Source of the DNA: a bacterium
Lineage (GTDB): Bacteria > Patescibacteriota > Minisyncoccia > UBA6257 > UBA9933
NCBI GenBank assembly: GCA_021791445.1
Contig: JAJYWO010000010.1
Coordinates: 1,304-65,303 of the forward strand
Reading direction: 5' to 3'
Length of the DNA stretch: 64,000 bases
The notes beneath the pieces were generated by a model. The model worked only from the letters and a program-made list of their open reading frames with translations, was not told the DNA's origin and ran no database searches. Shown here piece by piece: positions 7,687 to 53,255 of this stretch. Position numbers and translations under genes: made by a program. Numbering within the stretch: position 1 is the first letter of the stretch; every line of letters starts with the position of its first letter.

Positions 7687-8091
7687 ATGAACATAAATAA
7701 AAAAATTGACGCTAAAATTTTTAAAGCCTATGATATTCGCGGCATTTATCCGGACGAAATAAACGAAGAAATTGTTTCGGAAATAATTGCGGCGGTCGTT
7801 AAAAATTTCAAACCGAAAAAAATTATTATCGGCCACGACGCCCGCCTAAGTTCGCCAAAACTTTATCAGGCGCTAATAAAGCAATTTAAAATTTTAAATT
7901 TAAAATTTAAAATTATACCCACCGGCTTAATAACAACTCCCATGCTTTATTTTTTGACAAACTATTCCAATGCCGACCTCGGCATAATGATTACCGCTTC
8001 ACACAATCCCAAACAATATAACGGCTTAAAAATCGTCGGCAAAAACGCCGTTCCTATAAGCGGAAAACAAATATGGAAAATAATTTCATAA
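7687..8091 (+). CDS. Phosphomannomutase/phosphoglucomutase, N-terminal domain I fragment carrying the active-site Ser in TASHNP
   Basis: TASHNP phosphoserine motif. The frame ends at 8091 while domains II-IV continue in another frame from 8073. Confidence 0.75.
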   Translation: MNINKKIDAKIFKAYDIRGIYPDEINEEIVSEIIAAVVKNFKPKKIIIGHDARLSSPKLYQALIKQFKILNLKFKIIPTGLITTPMLYFLTNYSNADLGIMITASHNPKQYNGLKIVGKNAVPISGKQIWKIIS

Positions 8092-41587: not shown

Positions 41588-41612
41588 ATGAAGGCCTCCG
41601 CAAGGCCTTCAT
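41588..41612. terminator. Bidirectional terminator hairpin GAAGGCCTCCGCAAGGCCTTC between the convergent xerC and copA genes. Identical to 11688-11710
   Basis: Perfect hairpin flanked by A/T runs. Confidence 0.7.
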
Positions 41613-43789
41613 TTGTAATATTTCATTGTTAGCGCGCTTAAGACCACACTCACCGAGGAAAACGCCATTGCCGCGGCGGCGATAGCCGGATTAAGCAGCC
41701 AGCCGAAAAACGGGTAAAGGATGCCGGCGGCAATCGGGATGCCGGCGATGTTGTAAAAGAAAGCCCAGAAAAGATTTTGTTTGATTTTTCGCAATGTGTA
41801 AGCGCTTAAATTAATGGCGGAGATGGCGTCGCGTAAATCGTTTTTAACCAGAATAATCTGGCCGCTTTCAATGGCGATGTCCGAACCCGAACCGACTGCA
41901 ATTCCCAAATTGGCTTGCGTTAAGGCCGGCGCGTCGTTGATGCCGTCGCCGACAAAAGCCACGATTTCTCCCTGCGCTTGCAGGTTTTTTATTTCCTGCG
42001 ATTTTTCCTGAGGCAGGACTTCAGCCAATATTTTTTCTATGCCAAGCTGTTTGGCAATGGCTTCAGCGGTTCTTTTATTGTCGCCGGTAATCATCGCCGT
42101 TTTTTTGCCGGCCTCGCGCAGTTTTTTAACGGCTTCAATGGAAGTTTCTTTAAGCGTGTCCGCCGCGGCGATTAAGCCGATTATTTCTTTGTCTGCGGCG
42201 AGAATCATCACGGTTTTCCCTTGTTGTTCCAAATTTGAGATATTTTTTTCAATTTCATCGCTTATATTTATATTGAAACCGGCCATTAAATTTTTATTGC
42301 CGATTAAAATTTTTTGATTTTTAATTTCCCCTTTTGCTCCTTTTCCCGGAATCGCCTCAAAATTTTCAACTTCAAACAATCCCAGATTGTTTTTTTTCGC
42401 CTCGTCAACAATCGCTTGCGCCAAGGGATGTTCGGATTTTTTCTCCAAACTCGCCGCCAGTTTTAAAACATCGTTTTTTGCAATTTCCATAATATCCGTT
42501 ACTGTCGGTTCGCCGCGGGTCAAAGTTCCGGTTTTGTCAAAAACAACCATAGTGATTTTTTTGGCGATTTCCAAAGCGTCGGCGCTTTTGATTAAAATTC
42601 CTTTTTGCGCCGCTAAGCCCGTTCCCATCATTATCGCCGTGGGAGTCGCCAAGCCCAAGGCGCAGGGGCAGGCGATAATCAAAACCGTGACAAAAATCAC
42701 TAAGCTGAATGTGGCGCTTTGTCCAGTTAAAAACCAGATAATGGCGGCCAACACAGCGATAGCAATAACACTGGGCGTGAAATACAGCGAGATTTTATCA
42801 ACCAAAAGCTGAATCGGCGCTTTTGATTCCATAGCTTCCTGAACCACTTTGATGATTTGCGCCAAAATCGTATCTTTGCCAATTCTTTTCGCTTCAATTT
42901 TCAGAAAGCCGGTTTTATTGATGGTCGCGCCGATAACATCGTCTCCAACTTTTTTTTCAACCGGAATGCTTTCGCCGGTAATCATTTTTTCGTCAACTCC
43001 CGAATATCCTTCAATGACTTTGCCGTCAACCGGAATTTTTTCTCCGGGCTTTACCAAAACAATATCGCCGATTTTTATTTCCGCGATGTTGATTTTTATT
43101 TCTTTGCCGTCTCTTATGATAACCGCTTCCTTCGGTTGGAGGCCGATGAGTTTTTTAATCGCCTCGTTAGTTTTGCCTTTGGTTTTGGCTTCAAGATATT
43201 TGCCGAGGGCGATGAAAATCAGAATCAAAGCCGCGCTTTCAAAATACAAATCTCCGGAAACCGATAATACTAAAATAATCAGGCTGTAAAAATAAGCCAC
43301 GGCAGTGCCGATGAAAATCAAAGAATCCATATTGGGCATAAACCGGAGCAAGCTTTTAAATCCCGATTTCCAAATGTCAAAACAAGCGGCGATAATCGCG
43401 GTTGCCAAAACAAGCTGAATAATATCACTTGCTTGTTTTGCCAAGGGCAATTTTGGCAATCCGACAAGCGACGCCATTACAGCGTAAATAATCGGCAAGC
43501 CGAAAATAAGCGAAAAAACAAAGCGGTTTCTCAATTTTTTCGCCGGTTCTTCGGGATGATGGTGCTCGTGGTCTATTTCGTTTTCTTCCATCGCTCCGTA
43601 GCCGAGTTCGCCGATGATTTTTTTAATCGTGTCTTTGCCGATTTTTTTCTCGTCAAATTCAATACTGGCTTTTTCCGAAGCAAAATTCACGCCGGCATTT
43701 TTTATACCCTCGGTTTTTTTCAAAACGTGTTCAATGTTGGCGGCGCACGACGCGCAATCCATATCGGTAATTTTGAGAATTGTTTTCAT
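41609..43789 (-). CDS. copA: Copper-translocating P1B-type ATPase
   Basis: N-terminal HMA motif [14 protein letters not shown] in TM6 ([12 protein letters not shown]), [15 protein letters not shown]. Confidence 0.93.
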
Positions 43790-43795
43790 ATTATT

Positions 43796-44827
43796 TTATA
43801 TTCCGCAGCCGCTTTGTTGCTGAGGAGCCGGAGCGCTGTCAATGCCGCAGCCGCTTCCGCCGGAAGATTTTTGGGTTTTCGCGGTTTGCGAAGAGATTTT
43901 TCTGTATCCGGACGCGCTGGAATAATCAGCTCCGAGAATTTCAATTGGATCAACATTTTCCCATTCAATTCCTTTATTTTTCATATAAGTCGCGATGGTG
44001 AGATAAGTGTCCGGAAACCAGTAGGAATTTACGGCCAAAGCCGCATTCCACATTTCTTGTTCGCTCGCGTTTTGCGAAGCCATCAGCTCCAGAAGTCCAA
44101 GCATCGCCATCCCGTGGTTGCAATCCGGAAAATGCGTTGAATTGCCGCAGCACGGCCGGTAAACGCCTTTGGAAACTTTTTCCACCAGTGCCTGTTGTTC
44201 GTCGGTCAATTCAAGAAGCCGGTGCTTGCTGTAATGTTCCATTGCGTTTCCCTTGGCGATTGTCCATCCAGCGGTTGAGGCGAAATTTTCGGCTCCGCCG
44301 TAGCGCGGGTCCGCCATTTCTCCGTTTTCCAGAATCGGATTTTTGTTTGCCAAGCCGAGCGCCCACAGCAGATTCAGCAGATATCCGGAATTTTCATTTG
44401 TTATTCTGAGTTTGCCGTTGTTTTTCCCGAGGAGCAGATTCTCGTATTCTTTGGCGAACGCGTCGCGCTGTTCGTATATTGATTTGAATTTGTCGGCGTC
44501 AATGGCGCCTGAATTCACGAGTTGAAGTCCGAGATCGCCCCAGACAGCGGGCAAAACAACGCCTTCGGACGGCAGAACTTTTTCTTCAAGTTCGGAAATT
44601 GTTGTTTCGGAGACGGAGGCATTTTGCGTTTTCGGCAGGGTGCCGGATTTCAGTCCTACGGAATACACCCATGTTCCGGAAATCAATATCGCTGAAATAA
44701 GAATGCTTGTGCCGATGCCGATATTGAAGCCCGAGGATTTTTCCGCGCCGGCGTTTTGAATTGTTTCTTCCGCGTTTTGCGCTTGCACATCTTCAATTAT
44801 TTGATTTTGATTTTTTTGTTCTTCCAT
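43796..44827 (-). CDS. Membrane-anchored Cys-containing protein (CCGNSTHFPDCNHG, C-terminal SGCGIDSAPAPQQQSGCGI). Possibly a metal/thiol-redox partner in the copA operon
   Basis: ORF, single N-terminal TM. Position in the operon 46124->41609. Confidence 0.45.
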   Translation of the reverse strand: MEEQKNQNQIIEDVQAQNAEETIQNAGAEKSSGFNIGIGTSILISAILISGTWVYSVGLKSGTLPKTQNASVSETTISELEEKVLPSEGVVLPAVWGDLGLQLVNSGAIDADKFKSIYEQRDAFAKEYENLLLGKNNGKLRITNENSGYLLNLLWALGLANKNPILENGEMADPRYGGAENFASTAGWTIAKGNAMEHYSKHRLLELTDEQQALVEKVSKGVYRPCCGNSTHFPDCNHGMAMLGLLELMASQNASEQEMWNAALAVNSYWFPDTYLTIATYMKNKGIEWENVDPIEILGADYSSASGYRKISSQTAKTQKSSGGSGCGIDSAPAPQQQSGCGI

Positions 44828-44835
44828 AAGTTTAT

Positions 44836-45618
44836 TTAGAAAGCGAAAATGGCGATGCCGAGAATAATCATGGCAATGCCACTGATCGTTTTCATTTGTT
44901 TATTATTGACTCTTTTCCATTCCATCACTTTTTCCGTAAGAGATTTATCGCTGGTTATCAGCAGAATCGCGACAAGCGGAAGAATGAAAATCAGATTGTA
45001 CAGCAGAAGATAGCCGATTCCGGAATAATAAGTGTTCTGGTCATGAAGCAGTCCTAGCACCATCAGATACGGGCCGCCGGTGCAGGGAAATTCGCAGAGC
45101 CCGACAAGGACGCCCAGAAAAAACGCGGCCAATAAGGACGTTTTATCCATAAGTTCCGCCATTTTATTGTGCGCGATTTTCGGAATTTTTATTCTTATCG
45201 GAAACGATGGAAACAGCGCGCTTATGGCGCTTATCGCTCCGACGGCGATTAGAAGGACTGCTCCGACTTTTGCCATAAAATGCGGTGTGTTGAAAAGATG
45301 GAGAACCTGCAGAATTCCGAGCCCAATAAGGACATAAACGGCGAGAATTCCCAAAATGTAAAACCCTCCGATTTTCAAAATATCCGAACGCGTTTTTTCG
45401 ATGGTGAAAAGAAAAGCGATTGTCAGGAGCAGGATTGAAAACGCGCAGGGATTGACGCTGTCAATTATCGCCGCAACGCTTACGAGCGGCAGAAGCCATT
45501 TGCCGTGATCGCTTATATTCCACAAGGCGGCTGTTCCAATATTGCTTTCTTTCAGAAATATTGCCGCGCCGAAAACTAACAATGCGATTGCGGAAATAAA
45601 TATCAGTTTTTTGCTCAT
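44836..45618 (-). CDS. ccdA: Cytochrome c biogenesis / thiol-disulfide transporter CcdA (DsbD transmembrane domain family)
   Basis: Paired Cys in TM segments (SVNPCAFS and CEFPCTGGPY), 6-8 TM topology. Confidence 0.8.
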   Translation of the reverse strand: MSKKLIFISAIALLVFGAAIFLKESNIGTAALWNISDHGKWLLPLVSVAAIIDSVNPCAFSILLLTIAFLFTIEKTRSDILKIGGFYILGILAVYVLIGLGILQVLHLFNTPHFMAKVGAVLLIAVGAISAISALFPSFPIRIKIPKIAHNKMAELMDKTSLLAAFFLGVLVGLCEFPCTGGPYLMVLGLLHDQNTYYSGIGYLLLYNLIFILPLVAILLITSDKSLTEKVMEWKRVNNKQMKTISGIAMIILGIAIFAF

Positions 45619-46124
45619 TATGGAGTTACAACGGCGGTTAATTGAAGTTCAATCGGGTCGCCCGCGTTGTTTTCAATTATTACCGCCCTTTGGATTTTGC
45701 CAACGCCGGCCGGACCATGCGCCGCCGGGTCAAAAACGGCTTCTATTGTCGCTTCTTCGTTGGAATCGATTATCTGATTTATCACCGGAATAACGCCATG
45801 GCCGGGCATTCCGTAAGGCCCCATTTTTTTGCCCTTAATCATAAGTTCGGCGGTTGTGCACATGCACGAAGTGTATATCTTGCTTATAGTCGTTGCTTCA
45901 TTTCCGTTATTTTTAATTTTAAAATCGTATTTTACTTTTCCGGCGGTCATTGAAATTTCGCCGAAATCATAATTATTAACTCCTTCAACAACCAATGTTC
46001 CGTTATTTTGCGCCGGAATCGCGGATTTGTTTTTTCCGCTGCTCTGCTGTTTTGGTTCCGCGAACCAGATGATTCCGCCGAGCAGCGCGGCCGCGACAAC
46101 GGCGCTGATGACAATTTTGTTCAT
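45618..46124 (-). CDS. Secreted DUF1573-family protein
   Basis: YDFGEI...G......F.IKNNGN..L.I..V..SCMCT pattern. Confidence 0.6.
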   Translation of the reverse strand: MNKIVISAVVAAALLGGIIWFAEPKQQSSGKNKSAIPAQNNGTLVVEGVNNYDFGEISMTAGKVKYDFKIKNNGNEATTISKIYTSCMCTTAELMIKGKKMGPYGMPGHGVIPVINQIIDSNEEATIEAVFDPAAHGPAGVGKIQRAVIIENNAGDPIELQLTAVVTP

Positions 46125-47175: not shown

Positions 47176-47257
47176 AAAAAATTTGTTAACATTTTGACAA
47201 GTTAATCGTTATATTATATAGCAAGTTCTTTGGAAAAGCCCGGATGTTAACTTTTTA

Positions 47258-47280
47258 AGCCGAACACTCGGCTTTTTTTA
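47258..47280 (+). terminator. Rho-independent terminator AGCCGA-acac-TCGGCT plus a T7 run
   Basis: Read directly. It is preceded by a TTGACA-type promoter-like sequence at 47194-47220, so a short ~60-80-nt transcript is possible. Confidence 0.55.
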
Positions 47281-47469
47281 AAGAATTAAGAAAAATATGG
47301 AACCTAAAATAAATTTTTGGGAATTTTGCGCGCGTGTATACGAAATTTACAAGTATATAATAATTACCGGGTTTAGTTAGTTTAGTTATGGACTTATTCC
47401 CGCCAGAGGCGGACAGGCGCGCGAATAGTGGAATAATAAGAAATAAAATAAAAAATTTGTAAAATGAAT

Positions 47470-47600
47470 CGCGGGCTTGACTTTTGGGGTGAGATATGCT
47501 TATATAAATATAGTTTAAACACGGGATTGAACTTTGAAAAACATTCGTCATAGACGGATAAAATGATAGATAGAAAATTTTAGATAAGGAGGATAAGGAG
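47470..47600 (+). promoter_or_regulatory. Conserved promoter + 5' leader element, copy 1 of 3: cgcgggcTTGACTtttggggtgagatatgcTTATATAaat, a leader hairpin (cgtc-ata-gacg), ggataaaatgatagatagaaaa, then the SD ggaggataaggag
   Basis: Near-identical ~45-nt promoter core in all three copies. The leader hairpin shows compensatory changes between copies (cgtc/gacg vs ccgcc/ggcgg vs cagcgg/ccgctg). Confidence 0.75.
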
Positions 47601-48641
47601 ATGAATGAAATTTCCACGATAAAATTAATGTGGTTAACTGTTAATCGCGAATGTAATTTCCGTTGTAATTGGTGTTATGCGGCAGGAAGCGAATATCAGG
47701 CAAAAGATGAAATGTCTTTGCCGTTCGCTCTTGATCTTCTTGAAATTGCAAAACAACTTGGGATTGGCAAGTTATTTCTAATCGGGGGAGAGCCAACCCT
47801 TTGGCCTTATTTGTTTGATTTTAATGACGCGATGATATCCGCTAAAATAAAATCTACGCTTGTAACTAATGCGTATAGATTTTCTAGCGATAGGTTTTGG
47901 AGGAAATACATTGAGCATCCAAATACCCATATAGGCGCTTCATTTAAAGCTTTTAATCCGAAAAGTTTGATTGAGAATACAAAGGCCACTGCATTCGCCG
48001 ATGTTACAAAAGGTCTTCAAAGAGTTTTTGAATATCAACCAAATAGTATAGCCAGTTTTGTGTATTCACGGCCATATGTGTCTCATTTCCTGGATATGAT
48101 GAAATATGCCGTTGACTGCGGAGCATTTGGTGTGTCTGTGAATTTTTGTTCTCCGGCTATACACAAAGACCGCATAGATGATAAATTCTTAATTGATATT
48201 GACGTATTAGTTAAGGAAATAATATCTACTTATGAAGAAGCGCATGCGATTACGGGCGGTCGTCTTGTGTTTGTTATGAAACACCCTCTTTGTATTTGGC
48301 CTAAAGATTTTATTCAAATTTTGAAAGACAGGGGGCAGATTTCAACCACATGTCACCTCCAACATCAATCAGGGGGCATTATTGATACAGACGGTTCATT
48401 GTTAATTTGCAACAGCATGTTTGGCTTCCCCGTTGGCAGATACGGACAGGATTTTAAATCTGCCGAGTCGCTGGCAACTTTTTTTGGATCAAAGCAAATG
48501 AGAAATTACTTTGCTCAAGTAAGGGCGTATCCTTCCAAGAAGTGCATTGATTGTGAAGTCTTTGAAGACTGTTCAGGGGGTTGTCCATTGTTGTGGACAG
48601 TGTATTCGCCTGACAGCGTAATTACAGGGTGGTCAAAGTAG
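47601..48641 (+). CDS. Radical SAM enzyme with a C-terminal SPASM domain (peptide-modifying maturase type)
   Basis: CNFRCNWC (Cx3Cx2C) near the N-terminus and C-terminal CIDCEVFEDCSGGC (Cx2Cx5Cx3C), plus upstream CHLQH...ICNS auxiliary Cys. Confidence 0.85.
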   Translation: MNEISTIKLMWLTVNRECNFRCNWCYAAGSEYQAKDEMSLPFALDLLEIAKQLGIGKLFLIGGEPTLWPYLFDFNDAMISAKIKSTLVTNAYRFSSDRFWRKYIEHPNTHIGASFKAFNPKSLIENTKATAFADVTKGLQRVFEYQPNSIASFVYSRPYVSHFLDMMKYAVDCGAFGVSVNFCSPAIHKDRIDDKFLIDIDVLVKEIISTYEEAHAITGGRLVFVMKHPLCIWPKDFIQILKDRGQISTTCHLQHQSGGIIDTDGSLLICNSMFGFPVGRYGQDFKSAESLATFFGSKQMRNYFAQVRAYPSKKCIDCEVFEDCSGGCPLLWTVYSPDSVITGWSK

Positions 48642-48642
48642 A

Positions 48643-49365
48643 TTGACCATAACGAATCCTCTGGCGCATCGTAACGCGTCAGAGGATTTTTTTGCTAAAT
48701 CGAAAATTATAAGTTATATTAATAAAATCATGCTTGTTATACCCATAAAATTTCAATTTAATATTGAATCCGAGGTGCGCAGAGTAAGGGAGACTCTTGA
48801 TAATTTTAAATGGCTTACCAAAAATAATTACAGGTTTCTTTTGCCGAACGGCATAAAGGATTCTAAAGACATAAAAATAGAAATGATTAGAAAGTTAGTG
48901 GAAGATGAGTATGACTTGAATATTTATCAGATTGCCGAGAGCGCCATTTTAAAATCATGGGAAGGGAACAGTGGTTTAATGAGAAAAATTAACCAAAAGA
49001 TGAATGGTTCGTATATGTTGGATGAGGTCACTGTAATTTTAACCAGATATGGCACTCAGGGAAGCTATATGACACCTAATTCAGCGATTATAAATATTTC
49101 TAATATTCCTTCCGAGTTTCTAATTAAAACTGTTATACACGAGTCCTTGCATTTAATGATTGAACATTTAATCAAAAAATATTCAGTTGAGCATTGGGTT
49201 AAGGAACGTATAGTAGATTTAATAATGGATTTTGAATATAAATCTCGTTTTAAAATGCAGTCTGCGCCTAATTGGGTTTTTATTACAGATGAGATATTTA
49301 AAGGGTATTATCCGGATATGAATTTAATAATAGAAGGGGCAGCTAAAATTTTTCCTGATAAGTAA
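48643..49365 (+). CDS. HExxH-motif protein (putative zinc metallopeptidase), paralog 1 of 3
   Basis: TVIHESLHLMIEH. Translationally coupled to the rSAM gene, with a 1-nt gap. Confidence 0.6.
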   Translation: MTITNPLAHRNASEDFFAKSKIISYINKIMLVIPIKFQFNIESEVRRVRETLDNFKWLTKNNYRFLLPNGIKDSKDIKIEMIRKLVEDEYDLNIYQIAESAILKSWEGNSGLMRKINQKMNGSYMLDEVTVILTRYGTQGSYMTPNSAIINISNIPSEFLIKTVIHESLHLMIEHLIKKYSVEHWVKERIVDLIMDFEYKSRFKMQSAPNWVFITDEIFKGYYPDMNLIIEGAAKIFPDK

Positions 49366-49383
49366 TTTGCTGTGTATAAAAAA

Positions 49384-49420
49384 AGCCCTCAGCACATTTA
49401 ATTAAAAAATGTGCCGAGGG
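49384..49420. terminator. Bidirectional terminator gccctcagcacattt-aattaaa-aaatgtgccgaggg
   Basis: 14-15-bp stem with a T-run on the minus strand and A/T on the plus strand. Sits between convergent genes. Confidence 0.75.
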
Positions 49421-49445
49421 TTGTCGTTTCGGATGGAGATATTCT

Positions 49446-49607
49446 CTCACTCGTCTGCACAGTCGCAATTGCATTCGCATGCTCCCCAGCCGCCATCACA
49501 ATTACTGGTTATACAGTCACAATCACCGCGGATTTGAGGGGAAAAGCCTTTGACGCTTCTCGTGCATGGTATTTCCGTTGTCTTAAGGAATCTAACGAAT
49601 TTATCCA
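49446..49607 (-). CDS. Unannotated 53-aa Cys/Asp-rich precursor-like peptide (SCIFF/ranthipeptide-like): VDKFVRFLKTTEIPCTRSVKGFSPQIRGDCDCITSNCDGGWGACECNCDCADE
   Basis: Minus strand: SD AAAGGAGGTGA, 7 nt, GTG start, 8 Cys concentrated in the C-terminal 24 residues, stop followed by a strong terminator. A TTGTAT-17-TAATAT promoter lies upstream. The plus-strand ORF 49411..49692 on the opposite strand is judged spurious. Confidence 0.7.
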
Positions 49608-49681
49608 CTATTTCTCACCTCCTTTCTATTTGAATTTTCTAATAAAAATATTAACATTATTTTTTGATTTATACAATAACC

Positions 49682-49906
49682 CTATTTTTTAAGATCTTCA
49701 AATAATTTAGTATTTTTTGGATTATTCAGATAATGTTTAAAATGTTTTATTTCGTCGACTAAAATCTTTTCAAATTTACTTATCCAGATTTTATTAAAAC
49801 GCGGTTGAAATATTTCAAAAATTTTTTTAAATTCGTCTTTTTTGACAAGTCCTTCCAATTCGTTCCAAGCTTCTTTTTCCGGATATGTAAAAAATATCTG
49901 TCCCAA
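49682..49906 (-). CDS. Small hypothetical Lys/Glu-rich protein (74 aa), upstream of the precursor peptide. It overlaps the 5' end of 49842..50618 on the other strand, so one of the two starts is wrong
   Basis: ORF with plausible composition. No motif recognised. Confidence 0.35.
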   Translation of the reverse strand: MGQIFFTYPEKEAWNELEGLVKKDEFKKIFEIFQPRFNKIWISKFEKILVDEIKHFKHYLNNPKNTKLFEDLKK

Positions 49907-50618
49907 ATATTTTGACTATTGTGATGATGGCAGGAATTTGGAATGGGCGATTTTGAGAAAATATCCGGAATTTAAAAAATATAAAAGAAATAAATTAGAT
50001 GTCAATGAAAAGCAAATTTCAATATTTGTAAATTCTATTTATCAAAAGAACAATAAAATAATCAGAAAAAATCTTGATTTATATAAAAAAAGTTGGGCGA
50101 AACTGGGGAAAGACTATTTTGTTTTAGTTAGCCAGATTTTCGGCGATTATAAATGGCCATTAGGAAAATATATTGTTTATCTGACAATTTGGGGGATGCA
50201 CCCGCGTTTTTTAGAAGATAAAACTTTTCAAATCCCTTTTCGCCATAAGAATGAAAAATATATAAATGTGATTATTGCCCACGAAATGCTTCATTTTATA
50301 TTTTATGATTATTTTTATAATAAATTTCCCCAATATAAATCAAACAAATACAATTTTTTCGTATGGAACATATCGGAAATTTTTAACAATATAGCGCAGG
50401 ATTCTCCGCAATGGATTAAAATTTTTAAAGCTAAATCTATGCCTTATCCGGAACATAAAAAAATAGTGAATAAATTAAAGAAAAAATTTTATAAAAAAAG
50501 CGTTATTATAGCTAAAGATTTAATAAAAGAAATTATAAAAAATAAAGATTTTTTACCAATTTTCGCGGGCTTGACTTTTGGGGTGAGATATGCTTATATA
50601 AATATAATTAAGGGATAG
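49842..50618 (+). CDS. HExxH-motif protein, paralog 2 of 3. The TTG start from the track is uncertain. Its C-terminus is translated through the conserved promoter element of the next operon
   Basis: NVIIAHEMLHFIFYDY. The C-terminus FAGLTFGVRYAYINI is encoded by the cgcgggcttgacttttgggg... promoter repeat. Confidence 0.55.
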   Translation: MTSPSNSFQASFSGYVKNICPKYFDYCDDGRNLEWAILRKYPEFKKYKRNKLDVNEKQISIFVNSIYQKNNKIIRKNLDLYKKSWAKLGKDYFVLVSQIFGDYKWPLGKYIVYLTIWGMHPRFLEDKTFQIPFRHKNEKYINVIIAHEMLHFIFYDYFYNKFPQYKSNKYNFFVWNISEIFNNIAQDSPQWIKIFKAKSMPYPEHKKIVNKLKKKFYKKSVIIAKDLIKEIIKNKDFLPIFAGLTFGVRYAYINIIKG

Positions 50619-50691
50619 TTCTTAAAAACAAACAGCGGTTTTCAGCCGCTGAAAAATAAGATAGAAAAATTTAGAAATGAGGAGGTAAATC
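50561..50691 (+). promoter_or_regulatory. Conserved promoter + leader element, copy 2 (TTGACT at 50571-50576). Leader hairpin cagcgg-ttttcag-ccgctg, then aaaataagatagaaaa, then SD gaggaggtaa
   Basis: See copy 1. Confidence 0.75.
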
Positions 50692-51999
50692 ATGTTATAT
50701 CAGACACTTTCGGCACCAATAAATTGCCAGATAGAGCTTACGACTTCTTGTAGTCATAATTGTTCTCATTGCTATAATTTCTGGCGGAAGGATATTGAAA
50801 GAGTCAATAATTTTCTTAAAGAAACAGATGTTAGTAAAATTATACGGAAAATAGCGGACGCAAAAGTATTTGATATCATAATTACCGGCGGTGAGCCGTT
50901 AATAAAATATGATATTCTCATACATTGTATTAAGGAGGCGCGAAGCGCAGGATTGGGCATTTCTTTGAATTCAAATTTAGTTTCGTTAACCAGGGCTCGC
51001 GCGCGCGAATTGCGTTCTTTGGGTATAAAACAAATACTCACGTCTTTAATGGGTCCATCAGCGGAAATACATGATAAAATTGCCCAATCAAAAGGGTCAT
51101 TTGAAAGAGTTGTGAGAAATATACAATTAGCCAATGAAGAAAAGATTAATATTGTCGCCAATATGGTAGTTTCAAAAATTAATCTTTCTTTTGTTAGGGA
51201 CACGGCAAAGTTTGTTTCTTCTATTGGAATTAAGAAGTTTGCGGCTACCAAAGCGGGATGTCCGGGAAATTGTTTCGATTTCTCGCAATTCTCATTATCA
51301 AAAGAAGAATTTAAGAAATATTTACAAGATTTACAAGAAGTTGGCGAAGAGCTCGGTATTGCAATTGATGCGCTTGAGGGATATCCATTGTGTGGAATCG
51401 GCGACCTTAATCGTTATTATTCATTTATTGGAAGGAAATGTTATGCTGGCGTAACTACGATAACTATTGCCAGCGATGGCGAAGTTAGACCATGTTCCCA
51501 TCTTGATGTTTCGTATGGAAATTTACTTACAAAAGATTTGGCGGAGATTTGGACACGCATGGCTCCATGGAGAAATGGCGCATACTTACCAAATACTTGT
51601 AAAAGTTGTAAAATTTTACATGTGTGCGGTGGCGGTTGTCGTATGGAGGCGAAGATGCGCAGCGGGAATATTTCAGGAATGGATCCGTACAGTATGCCCA
51701 ACGATATTGAAAAGAGTTTATATTCACTTCAAGAACATCAGAAAAATATGTTTTATAAGGCGCCATTGAAAAATTTTGAAATAAGGCCTTATCGCTATCG
51801 ACATGAATCTTTTGGAGCCGTTGTTCTTGTGGGGAAATCTCGAGCATTTCTAAGTGCAACCGGTCTTAAACTCTTTAAGCAGTTTGAAATATCGTCTACG
51901 TATTCATTACAAGACGAAAGAATTCAGTGGGGCGCTTTGAATCCGGTCGATTTTATTCGCGGCCTTATTCAAAGAGGAATCGCTGTTGGAAAACAGTGA
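50692..51999 (+). CDS. Radical SAM enzyme with a SPASM domain, second maturase
   Basis: CSHNCSHC (Cx3Cx2C) and C-terminal CKSCKILHVCGGGC (Cx2Cx5Cx3C), plus CGIGD...C auxiliary cluster residues. Confidence 0.85.
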   Translation: MLYQTLSAPINCQIELTTSCSHNCSHCYNFWRKDIERVNNFLKETDVSKIIRKIADAKVFDIIITGGEPLIKYDILIHCIKEARSAGLGISLNSNLVSLTRARARELRSLGIKQILTSLMGPSAEIHDKIAQSKGSFERVVRNIQLANEEKINIVANMVVSKINLSFVRDTAKFVSSIGIKKFAATKAGCPGNCFDFSQFSLSKEEFKKYLQDLQEVGEELGIAIDALEGYPLCGIGDLNRYYSFIGRKCYAGVTTITIASDGEVRPCSHLDVSYGNLLTKDLAEIWTRMAPWRNGAYLPNTCKSCKILHVCGGGCRMEAKMRSGNISGMDPYSMPNDIEKSLYSLQEHQKNMFYKAPLKNFEIRPYRYRHESFGAVVLVGKSRAFLSATGLKLFKQFEISSTYSLQDERIQWGALNPVDFIRGLIQRGIAVGKQ

Positions 52000-52033
52000 T
52001 TATGTAAAAATATCTCAAAAGGAGGTAATCGCT

Positions 52034-52162
52034 ATGCCAAAAGATGACGGTTTTGTTTCATTCGTTCAAATAGAAAAAAACCAAACAGAAAATCTTACGG
52101 CTGTTCAAAACTGCGACTGTTATGATTGCGACTACAACTGCGAAGAGTGCGATAGCAAATGA
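52034..52162 (+). CDS. Unannotated 42-aa Cys/Asp-rich precursor-like peptide: MPKDDGFVSFVQIEKNQTENLTAVQNCDCYDCDYNCEECDSK
   Basis: SD AAAGGAGGTAA 7 nt before the ATG, directly downstream of the rSAM stop. Five Cys in the last 16 residues, with a CDC motif shared with peptide A. A terminator follows. Confidence 0.75.
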   Translation: MPKDDGFVSFVQIEKNQTENLTAVQNCDCYDCDYNCEECDSK

Positions 52163-52184
52163 TCATAGATCATTTGTTGATCTC

Positions 52185-52214
52185 AAAGAGATAAAGGATT
52201 TCCTTTATCTCTTT
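52185..52214. terminator. Bidirectional terminator aaagagataaagga-ttt-cctttatctcttt plus a T run
   Basis: 13-14-bp stem. Sits between precursor B (+) and the HExxH paralog 3 (-). Confidence 0.75.
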
Positions 52215-53080
52215 TTTATTTGGATCGGTTTTTGATATTTAAGTAGAATATGCGGTTTTTTATATAATTGATTTCCATAGCGGTTCCAAACGGCGCGTTT
52301 TTTTGAAAAATCTTTATTAATTGGCAAAAGAATATTTAATATTTCTTGCAGGAAAGTTTTAAAAGTTTTTTTATTTTTTATTTTTATAATTTGATAATAT
52401 TCATTAATAAATTCAGTAAAAGAAATAATTACGCCATCGGACTTTTTAATTTGCAGGTCGCGAATTTCCGGATTGCCTTGATAATTTTTTAATTTAAGAA
52501 TTTTATTAAGAGGTTTTTGGTTAAGCAATACGGCGGTCAAAGTTTCTTTAAAATAGTTTTTAAAATCTTCTGGGACTTTTTTTCGTTTCAATTTTTTAAG
52601 AAAATTAAAAAGAATGAAATGCGATATTTCATGGATAGCAATAAAAAGAATATCTCTGCCACCTTTTCTTTTTATCTGTTCAAGAATTGAAAAATAAAAA
52701 ACATTGTTGCCAAAAGGAGAAAATGGAAGAATTGTCGGCATGGCTGTGTAGTCGGGGTGATTTTTTGGCCATTGATAATCCATTAATTTCGCCAATTTGA
52801 TGAGCGCTTTTTTTTCTTTTTCTTTTAATATTTTTTTCGATTGAACAATAATTTTTTTGATTTTTTTATCGTTTTTTTTATAAAAATCTTTAATGAATTC
52901 TTTTATAATAGTTTTTTCTTTATTTTTATTTTTCTCTGTTTTTAACAAAATTTCCAATTCGGGAAAGGATTTAAAAATAATAAATTTATGTTGAGGATAA
53001 TAATGATGGTGTAAAAATTTTAAAAATAGATCAACTTCTTTATTTAAGTCATATGTAATTTTAATAGAAGGAATTTTCAT
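52205..53080 (-). CDS. HExxH-motif protein, paralog 3 of 3
   Basis: LFIAIHEISHFILFNF, Lys-rich, 291 aa. SD aaaggaaa lies upstream of the ATG at 53080. Confidence 0.55.
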   Translation of the reverse strand: MKIPSIKITYDLNKEVDLFLKFLHHHYYPQHKFIIFKSFPELEILLKTEKNKNKEKTIIKEFIKDFYKKNDKKIKKIIVQSKKILKEKEKKALIKLAKLMDYQWPKNHPDYTAMPTILPFSPFGNNVFYFSILEQIKRKGGRDILFIAIHEISHFILFNFLKKLKRKKVPEDFKNYFKETLTAVLLNQKPLNKILKLKNYQGNPEIRDLQIKKSDGVIISFTEFINEYYQIIKIKNKKTFKTFLQEILNILLPINKDFSKKRAVWNRYGNQLYKKPHILLKYQKPIQIKKR

Positions 53081-53120
53081 GTTAAAATTTTATCAAATTT
53101 CCTTTATTTTATCCAATTTT

Positions 53121-53255
53121 CGCGGACTTGACTTTTGGGGCGAGATATGCTTATATAAATACAATTTAAGCAAGGGGTTGGACTTTGAAAAACATCCGCC
53201 ATGGGCGGATAAAATGATAGATAGAAAAAATTCAGAAAAATAGGAGGATAAGGAG
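53121..53255 (+). promoter_or_regulatory. Conserved promoter + leader element, copy 3 (TTGACT at 53128-53133). Leader hairpin ccgcc-atg-ggcgg, ggataaaatgatagatagaaaa, SD ggaggataaggag
   Basis: See copy 1. Confidence 0.75.

Follow-up and report, generated by a model that had tools for sequence, protein, structure and literature searches.

A 64,000-nucleotide (nt) stretch of bacterial DNA (contig JAJYWO010000010.1 of assembly GCA_021791445.1, positions 1,304 to 65,303; hereafter the window) carries on its minus strand a 53-codon gene for a cysteine-rich peptide. In the reading that we favour and consider probable, this gene encodes the precursor of a peptide synthesized ribosomally and modified post-translationally (RiPP), the core of which is cross-linked by a radical S-adenosylmethionine (SAM) enzyme and the leader of which is removed by a zincin-fold protein. 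The gene is almost certainly real and is under strong purifying selection, and it is inherited as one unit with the genes for the radical SAM/SPASM enzyme and the HExxH zincin-fold protein. Judged from the sequences, the peptide is very probably the substrate of the radical SAM enzyme. The features on which the argument turns are the following.

49447..49608, minus strand: gene for the Cys-rich precursor peptide, 53 amino acids, GTG start and TGA stop, from the open reading frame (ORF) listing
49626..49615, minus strand: Shine-Dalgarno sequence GAAAGGAGGTGA, read on the minus strand
49376..49420, minus strand: intrinsic terminator of the peptide gene, 14-bp stem with seven G-C pairs, 7-nt loop and T-run
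49701..49673, minus strand: candidate promoter TTGAAG-17-TATTGT, matching 8/12 consensus positions (-35 box 49701..49696, -10 box 49678..49673)
47601..48641, plus strand: radical SAM/SPASM enzyme, 346 amino acids, proposed core-modifying maturase
48730..49365, plus strand: orphan zincin-fold HExxH protein, 211 amino acids, proposed leader peptidase, convergent with the peptide gene
49411..49692, plus strand: spurious antisense 'shadow' ORF, 93 amino acids

The original prediction, made from the letters of the window, had already described the minus-strand gene with its 53 codons and GTG start, and the peptide that it quoted agrees exactly with the ORF listing; its coordinates (49446-49607) were one base low. 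It had also called the gene unannotated, which is true only of the six-frame track, since the exact peptide is deposited in GenBank as MCL5073265.1 under the name hypothetical protein. Two DNA scans yielded 39 other loci with 22 distinct DNA versions, 17 of them of equal length. A first codon test was made with eight orthologs and a larger one with the 22 distinct versions, comparing the proportions of synonymous (pS) and non-synonymous (pN) differences. In the first test the gene frame gave a pS of 0.73 and a pN of 0.18 (ratio 0.25), with variation at 49 of the 53 third positions, and four of the other five frames gave ratios of 1.1-1.2; the remaining frame, at 0.31, has its third-codon positions in common with the gene and contains stops in seven of the eight orthologs. 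The predominance of synonymous variation, which had been proposed as a check, was found in the larger test in the gene frame only (pS 0.77, pN 0.22). There the pN/pS ratio was 0.28 overall, 0.40 in the leader (codons 2-28) and 0.17 in codons 29-53, and it fell to 0.05 at a pS of 0.89 in core codons 36-50. Frame-disrupting indels were looked for in the 39 loci, and only in-frame changes of length were found, to peptides of 52, 54, 55 and 61 amino acids.

The signals around the gene point in the same direction. The Shine-Dalgarno sequence is kept, with unchanged spacing to the start codon, in seven of the eight orthologs examined, the exception being L015 with the diverged GAAAGGAGAAGA, and the start codon itself is GTG in the window and ATG in the orthologs. 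The 7-nt spacer that had been claimed is approximate, as the distance to the GTG is 9 nt from the GGAGG and 6 nt from the end of GAAAGGAGGTGA. A terminator scan independently called the hairpin at 49420..49386 on the minus strand, with 14 pairs followed by CTTTTTTT and a folding energy of -25.1 kcal/mol, although its earlier description as GC-rich does not fit a stem in which half of the pairs (7/14) are G-C. Each ortholog has its own terminator hairpin, unrelated in sequence and with an energy of -20 to -26 kcal/mol. Because the purifying pattern is confined to this frame, the Shine-Dalgarno sequence is conserved and the terminators are lineage-specific, the gene goes beyond what chance would produce.

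The same data decide against the opposite explanation, that the 93-amino-acid plus-strand ORF is the true gene and the minus-strand ORF accidental. This ORF is the longest over the site and is open in six of the eight orthologs across the overlap, but its frame shows a pN/pS of 1.16 against 0.25 for the minus frame, stops interrupt it in the other two orthologs, and its counterpart in locus L001 is broken into pieces of 34-39 amino acids. It also crosses the Shine-Dalgarno sequence and promoter region of the minus-strand gene, and its product has no NCBIfam or Pfam family match and is absent from a collection of 15 billion proteins. The chance that it is a gene is negligible, as the original prediction had suspected. 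It stays open because the antisense of Cys, Asp and Gly codons contains no stops, which makes the site a clean case, of interest to annotation practice, of a long antisense ORF that hides a real small gene.

The promoter had been assigned to TTGTAT-17-TAATAT. This string is present at 49676..49648, but as a promoter it was rejected: it matches 7/12 consensus positions in DNA of about 20% G+C, failed the scan, has no positional counterpart in the orthologs, and its '-35' overlaps the -10 hexamer of the candidate listed above. A TTGAxx-type -35 box lies 89-102 nt 5' of the start codon in seven of nine sequences, the window included; it reads TTGACA in L001, L003, L006 and L009, TTGACT in L013 and TTGATT in L007, and the promoter of L009 (TTGACA-16-TATAAT) matches the consensus at 12/12 positions. 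This conserved position, about 93 nt upstream, suggests a 5' untranslated region (UTR) of about 58 nt (49609..49666, minus strand, in the window). A short inverted repeat occurs within it, and likewise in L003, L006, L007, L012 and L013; the repeats differ in sequence (TTGTCAAAATTTTGACAA in L006, TTAAAAGA...TCTTTTAA in L007) and could form a regulatory hairpin or operator. Adjoining the promoter region upstream is a 74-amino-acid ORF (49682..49906, minus strand), which overlaps the start of a 258-amino-acid HExxH ORF described below; none of the fetched loci has a homolog of it, and it is unlikely to be a gene.

The peptide family is small and strongly patterned. Homolog searches gave 16 relatives of 52-55 amino acids, apart from two longer gene models (65 and 72 amino acids), and when 1.84 billion representatives were searched exhaustively with a profile, only four true clusters emerged. 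Two blocks are separately conserved, as expected for a leader and a core: FxKLLKTTG..GFSPQ within a leader of approximately residues 1-28, with conserved F4, L8, T10-T11 and G21-F-S23-P24, and DC..NCxGGWGACECNCDC within a core of approximately residues 29-53. In the core D31, C32, N36, C37, G39, G40, G42, A43, C44, E45, C46, C48, D49 and C50 are invariant and N47 and W41 nearly so. Eight Cys had been counted in the window peptide, which is correct there; across the family six are invariant, all within the core block, and positions C15 and C30 are variable. Five of the six stand directly behind an Asp, Asn or Glu that is itself invariant or nearly so. The most distant members, ...NCPGFGACECNCDC and ...NCPGHGQCDCDCDCDC, keep the skeleton NCxGxGxC[ED]C[ND]CDC and have lost Trp41. 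The peptide had no match with the SCIFF and other Cys-rich-peptide models or the PADLOC models, nor with any NCBIfam or Pfam family at E<=0.1. The 90%-identity cluster of MCL5073265.1 also holds Gly/Ala-rich proteins of 480-584 amino acids and a 57-amino-acid fragment of these, and its representative, an unrelated Gly/Ala-rich protein of 565 amino acids, would mis-describe the peptide. The 480-584-amino-acid proteins were considered as fusions of the peptide and rejected as unrelated; we read them as a low-complexity clustering artefact.

The genomic context provides the link to enzymes. The convergent HExxH gene directly follows the peptide gene in 37 of the 39 loci, and the two exceptions run out within about 200 nt. 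Beyond it lies the 346-amino-acid radical SAM gene, which is full length wherever there is room and 69-83% identical, decayed loci excepted. The remaining neighbours vary between loci, so that only these two genes are invariant, and no exporter or immunity gene lies within the conserved three-gene unit. The peptide gene is thus a short selected gene linked to a peptide-modifying enzyme, as is general for RiPP precursors, and the RiPP-precursor reading put forward in the original prediction is supported by the obligate synteny with the radical SAM/SPASM and zincin-fold genes, by a core that is more constrained than the leader and by a second cassette 2.4 kb away. The decayed loci are of two kinds: L012 (8976..9062), L028 and L033 keep only a C-terminal remnant of the radical SAM gene, its last ~30 codons, and in L029-L031 a truncated HExxH gene covers only residues 97-236. 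The peptide core in decayed clusters is still intact, with W41L and the canonical start lost, which suggests recent loss in some lineages.

The 346-amino-acid enzyme has the features of a SPASM-type maturase. Its CX3CX2C motif lies at C18/C22/C25, its first 148 residues match PF04055 (1.8e-15), and it scores 29.8 bits against the SPASM model TIGR04085, above the cutoff of 27. Nine further Cys (C173, 183, 231, 251, 270, 315, 318, 324 and 328) are present in all six aligned orthologs, C173 being Asn in a seventh; they include the conserved motifs CX13GX4C (C251-C270) and CX2CX5CX3C (C315-C328). The enzyme has no N-terminal domain of the RiPP recognition element (RRE) type and lacks the usual final Cys after the SPASM motif. 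Its best full-length NCBIfam alignment is to PapB (NF047865, 52 bits with a cutoff of 340); the SCIFF maturase TIGR03974 gives 32 bits with a cutoff of 425, and the StsB model NF045574, with a cutoff of 625, gives 38 bits for this enzyme and 85 bits for a second, 435-amino-acid enzyme in the window. The nearest solved proteins to the ortholog profile are the RiPP cross-linkers CteB (5e-7), SkfB and SuiB (full length). By its sequence the enzyme is a deeply divergent peptide-modifying SPASM member that lies outside every named family.

Comparison with characterized systems bears on the chemistry, for which thioether formation has, by analogy, about an even chance. As in PapA/PapB (freyrasin) and SCIFF/CteB, a short precursor has an N-terminal leader and a C-terminal core with six Cys and Asp/Glu/Asn, and a single radical SAM/SPASM maturase adjoins it; as in SCIFF, the core is highly conserved and an exporter is not linked. 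Nevertheless, there are distinct differences. The first is that, unlike in the ranthipeptide systems, the maturase lies far under the equivalog cut-offs and the precursor matches no family model. The second is the order of residues: the candidate ranthipeptide donors and acceptors in the sequence are the six invariant Cys and D31, N36, E45, D49 and the near-invariant N47, and the candidate acceptors stand ahead of the Cys ([D/N/E]-C), unlike in PapA, where the acceptor follows the Cys (CX3D). PapB tolerates Cys-acceptor spacings of 0-6 residues (PMC9413430). The third is an obligate zincin partner and the taxon, Patescibacteria. A likeness also exists to the StsA/StsB and BlaA/BlaB sactipeptides, with their Cys-to-Gly sactionine hairpins, in that a CxCxC run and a GxG glycine motif stand a few residues apart in the core. 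The StsA core is CxCxCx4GxGxG, with links Cys2-Gly15, Cys4-Gly13 and Cys6-Gly11 (PMC10288494). In the present family all members, down to the most distant, keep GxGxCxCxCxC, but the glycines stand N-terminal to the cysteines, in the reverse of the StsA order, and four consecutive CxC cysteines are accompanied by two more upstream; moreover, the maturase scores below the StsB cutoff and there is no evident counterpart of StsC, a separate RRE protein.

A reaction sequence consistent with these comparisons can be proposed. The N-terminal ~28 residues (FxKLLKTTG...GFSPQ) would form a leader through which the peptide docks on the radical SAM enzyme. With its SAM cluster and the auxiliary SPASM clusters, the enzyme would abstract hydrogen atoms from acceptor residues, and the thiols of the six invariant Cys would be joined to these acceptors to give a compact multi-thioether core. 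Two sets of acceptors are conceivable: the β or γ carbons of the invariant Asp/Asn/Glu before five of the six Cys, by analogy with PapB, or the α-carbons of the invariant GxG glycines, by analogy with StsA with the order reversed. After cross-linking, the zincin would remove the leader. A cross-link or cofactor based on Trp (of the streptide, cysteine tryptophylquinone or triceptide-like kind) was rejected as the defining chemistry, as W41 is replaced by F, H, L or Y in some members.

An alternative accepts the RiPP precursor and differs in the product, which would be a peptide-derived cofactor or a modified metallophore (cf. PqqA, MftA and QhpC) and not a thioether-stapled peptide. The radical SAM enzyme would then catalyse a different reaction (such as C-C or C-O coupling, or decarboxylation), and Asp/Asn would be hydroxylated by the HExxH protein, acting as an α-ketoglutarate (αKG)/Fe oxygenase. 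In its conserved core, drifting leader and want of a linked exporter or immunity gene the family is closer to SCIFF, PqqA and MftA than to bacteriocins. The HExxH protein does not match the model of αKG-dependent HExxH β-hydroxylases (IPR026337), the family of the ChlH domain of ChlB, BpmH and PflC/PosC; canonical peptidases match it better in structure, the motif is followed 18 residues on by a gluzincin-style Glu, and a paralog accompanies an ATP-grasp cassette, none of which resembles these oxygenases. We regard this alternative as unlikely.

The HExxH protein itself has HESLH at residues 137-141 and Glu159 18 residues past the second His, and an HExxH helix packed on a β-sheet with the third-ligand Glu downstream, as in a zincin (gluzincin-like) fold. 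Its start is probably Met30 (48730) of a 240-amino-acid ORF that begins at 48643, since the resulting length of 211 amino acids is that of ~60 homolog clusters and a hairpin precedes it at 48654..48689. These homologs are unnamed and without a Pfam domain, and the labelled ones belong to Paceibacterota/Parcubacteria. Searches of the HExxH proteins against NCBIfam and Pfam gave only sub-threshold, chance-level matches, and among PDB sequences the sole match of the profile, to a viral 3C-like protease (E 0.055), is attributable to chance. Compared with the gluzincins (M1 catalytic domain, thermolysin and the Wss1/WLM minimal zincins), it has no Pfam, NCBIfam or PDB sequence relationship and differs by an N-terminal helical extension of ~95 residues. 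A role as leader peptidase is favoured somewhat over other roles: as a helper common to chemically unrelated RiPP cassettes, the protein is more simply explained as a leader peptidase. One such cassette is graspetide-like and lies at 8050..10193 of L001 (Parcubacteria metagenome-assembled genome, MAG, PFDM01000025.1), ~6 kb from the Cys-rich peptide cluster; its genes are for an ATP-grasp MvdD-type ligase, a 49-52-amino-acid peptide with a microviridin-like PFAVRF leader and a 210-amino-acid HExxH paralog. Within these bacteria the HExxH family would thus seem to be a general helper of RiPP cassettes.

A further explanation dispenses with modification altogether and takes the peptide as a small metal-binding protein, akin to metallothionein or serving as an Fe-S/Zn ligand, whose unmodified Cys/Asp/Glu side chains chelate metal directly, with the radical SAM and zincin genes as unrelated neighbours. 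Several observations weigh for it: the dense CxCxCxC run with acidic residues, the extreme conservation of the core, the conserved unit without an exporter, and a CopA-type copper ATPase with thiol-redox proteins 3-8 kb upstream in the window. The AlphaFold2 model of the peptide shows no confident fold (mean pLDDT 43.5), a score that is compatible with folding upon metal binding, and no compact fold is predicted. Metal genes are near the peptide at no other locus, however, and the radical SAM/SPASM and HExxH genes are its sole invariant neighbours; neither Pfam nor NCBIfam gives a metallothionein or metal-binding match, and the conserved 28-residue N-terminal extension would have no role in a simple chelator. 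The explanation is therefore improbable. The upstream genes (41609..46124, minus strand) encode the CopA-type P-type ATPase, which bears a CopZ-like domain at its N terminus, together with an ArsG/CcdA-like permease and a thioredoxin-like protein of the OS_HP2 family. As neighbours differ from locus to locus, these genes lie outside the unit, and a copper or metal linkage through CopA was rejected.

For the cross-linked RiPP that we favour, a fixed physiological role as a signal or as a metal or redox ligand is more likely than that of an arms-race antibiotic, since the core is near-invariant, the leader drifts and no exporter or immunity gene is linked. That the product matters to its host follows from the retention of the three-gene cassette, the 69-83% identity of the enzyme and the core pN/pS of 0.05. 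A bolder proposal, which we hold tentatively and think rather unlikely, is that the peptide founds a RiPP class of its own, so far seen only in Patescibacteria (the candidate phyla radiation, CPR), with a divergent RRE-less radical SAM/SPASM enzyme, a new cross-link topology and a fixed-sequence episymbiotic product. The cross-links would in that case lie on the [D/N/E]-Cys ladder, for example as thioethers to the residue just before each Cys or to the upstream glycines, and the product would serve the episymbiotic lifestyle as a signal or a metal or redox ligand and not as an antibiotic.

Patescibacteria have genomes among the smallest of bacteria. To our knowledge they are not noted for natural products, and the literature searched contained no published RiPP family from Patescibacteria/CPR and no description of this peptide family. 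The gene call was already in GenBank without a function, and it fits a known kind, the radical SAM/SPASM-modified Cys-rich RiPP. New here are the precursor family, the maturase subfamily and a zincin partner outside the curated families; the motif is unusual and so far found in Patescibacteria only. Characterization would add a radical SAM maturase subfamily and a RiPP-associated zincin family, and perhaps also a new thioether topology. At ~2 kb the cassette is small and suited to heterologous co-expression, which makes the hypothesis directly testable.

Around the unit, the window contains further features of the same kinds.

48654..48689, plus strand: hairpin, 14 bp with T-run, directly after the radical SAM stop codon, ahead of the probable HExxH start
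49842..50618, plus strand: HExxH paralog, 258 amino acids, HEMLH, 22% identical to the 240-amino-acid ORF
50692..51999, plus strand: second radical SAM/SPASM enzyme, 435 amino acids
52034..52162, plus strand: second Cys/Asp-rich peptide, 42 amino acids, core NCDCYDCDYNCEEC, ATG behind AAAGGAGGT
52185..52214, plus strand: terminator of the second cassette, 13 bp
52205..53080, minus strand: HExxH paralog, 291 amino acids, HEISH, 17% identical to the 240-amino-acid ORF

The second radical SAM gene and the Cys/Asp-rich peptide gene form a RiPP-like operon (50692..52214, plus strand), whose distance from the 53-amino-acid gene was given above. Its peptide is deposited as a 58-amino-acid model (MCL5073262.1, start TTG 51986) and is a singleton, with no homolog among 5.8 billion proteins. 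An ortholog of the 435-amino-acid enzyme (44% identity) lies directly upstream of the 53-amino-acid peptide gene in L001, L011 and L017, where there is no other Cys-rich ORF near it; the two cassettes may therefore cross-talk. Within 4.4 kb there are three HExxH paralogs of 16-22% identity, which have in common the HExxH motif, the downstream Glu and few other residues. The hairpin at 48654..48689 may act as a partial terminator or internal attenuator that sets the ratio of radical SAM enzyme to peptidase. In Rfam no RNA family was found, the only match being a sub-threshold one of this hairpin to NsiR1 (25.8 bits against 39). Membership in a defence system was rejected, as PADLOC gave only partial viperin-core matches to the two radical SAM enzymes and none for the peptide or the HExxH proteins.

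Upstream of the 346-amino-acid radical SAM gene, 425 nt (47176..47600) hold no convincing ORF and no Rfam match; this segment has a strong positive GC skew and contains the terminator of an EamA gene (47257..47274) and a TTGACT...TATATA promoter-like site. The window is otherwise ordinary chromosomal DNA, with genes for ClpB, FtsK, PBP1, a type IV pilus ATPase, DnaG, UvrD and a short AlaRS of 593 amino acids, and its G+C content is ~41%, compared with 32-35% in the cluster (47200..53200). Five loci from genome collections correspond to four distinct contigs, which are from Patescibacteria/Parcubacteria/Paceibacterota MAGs except for one contig labelled only 'uncultured bacterium'. Orthologs came from groundwater sites (the Crystal Geyser 'CG10' and Hainich 'Hain-H' assemblies). 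The deposited MAG of the window bears the label 'Actinobacteria bacterium', whereas the content is CPR-like (type IV pilus ATPase, short AlaRS). As every named relative of the cluster lies in Patescibacteria, this label is doubtful: the alternatives are a misclassified MAG and a transferred island.
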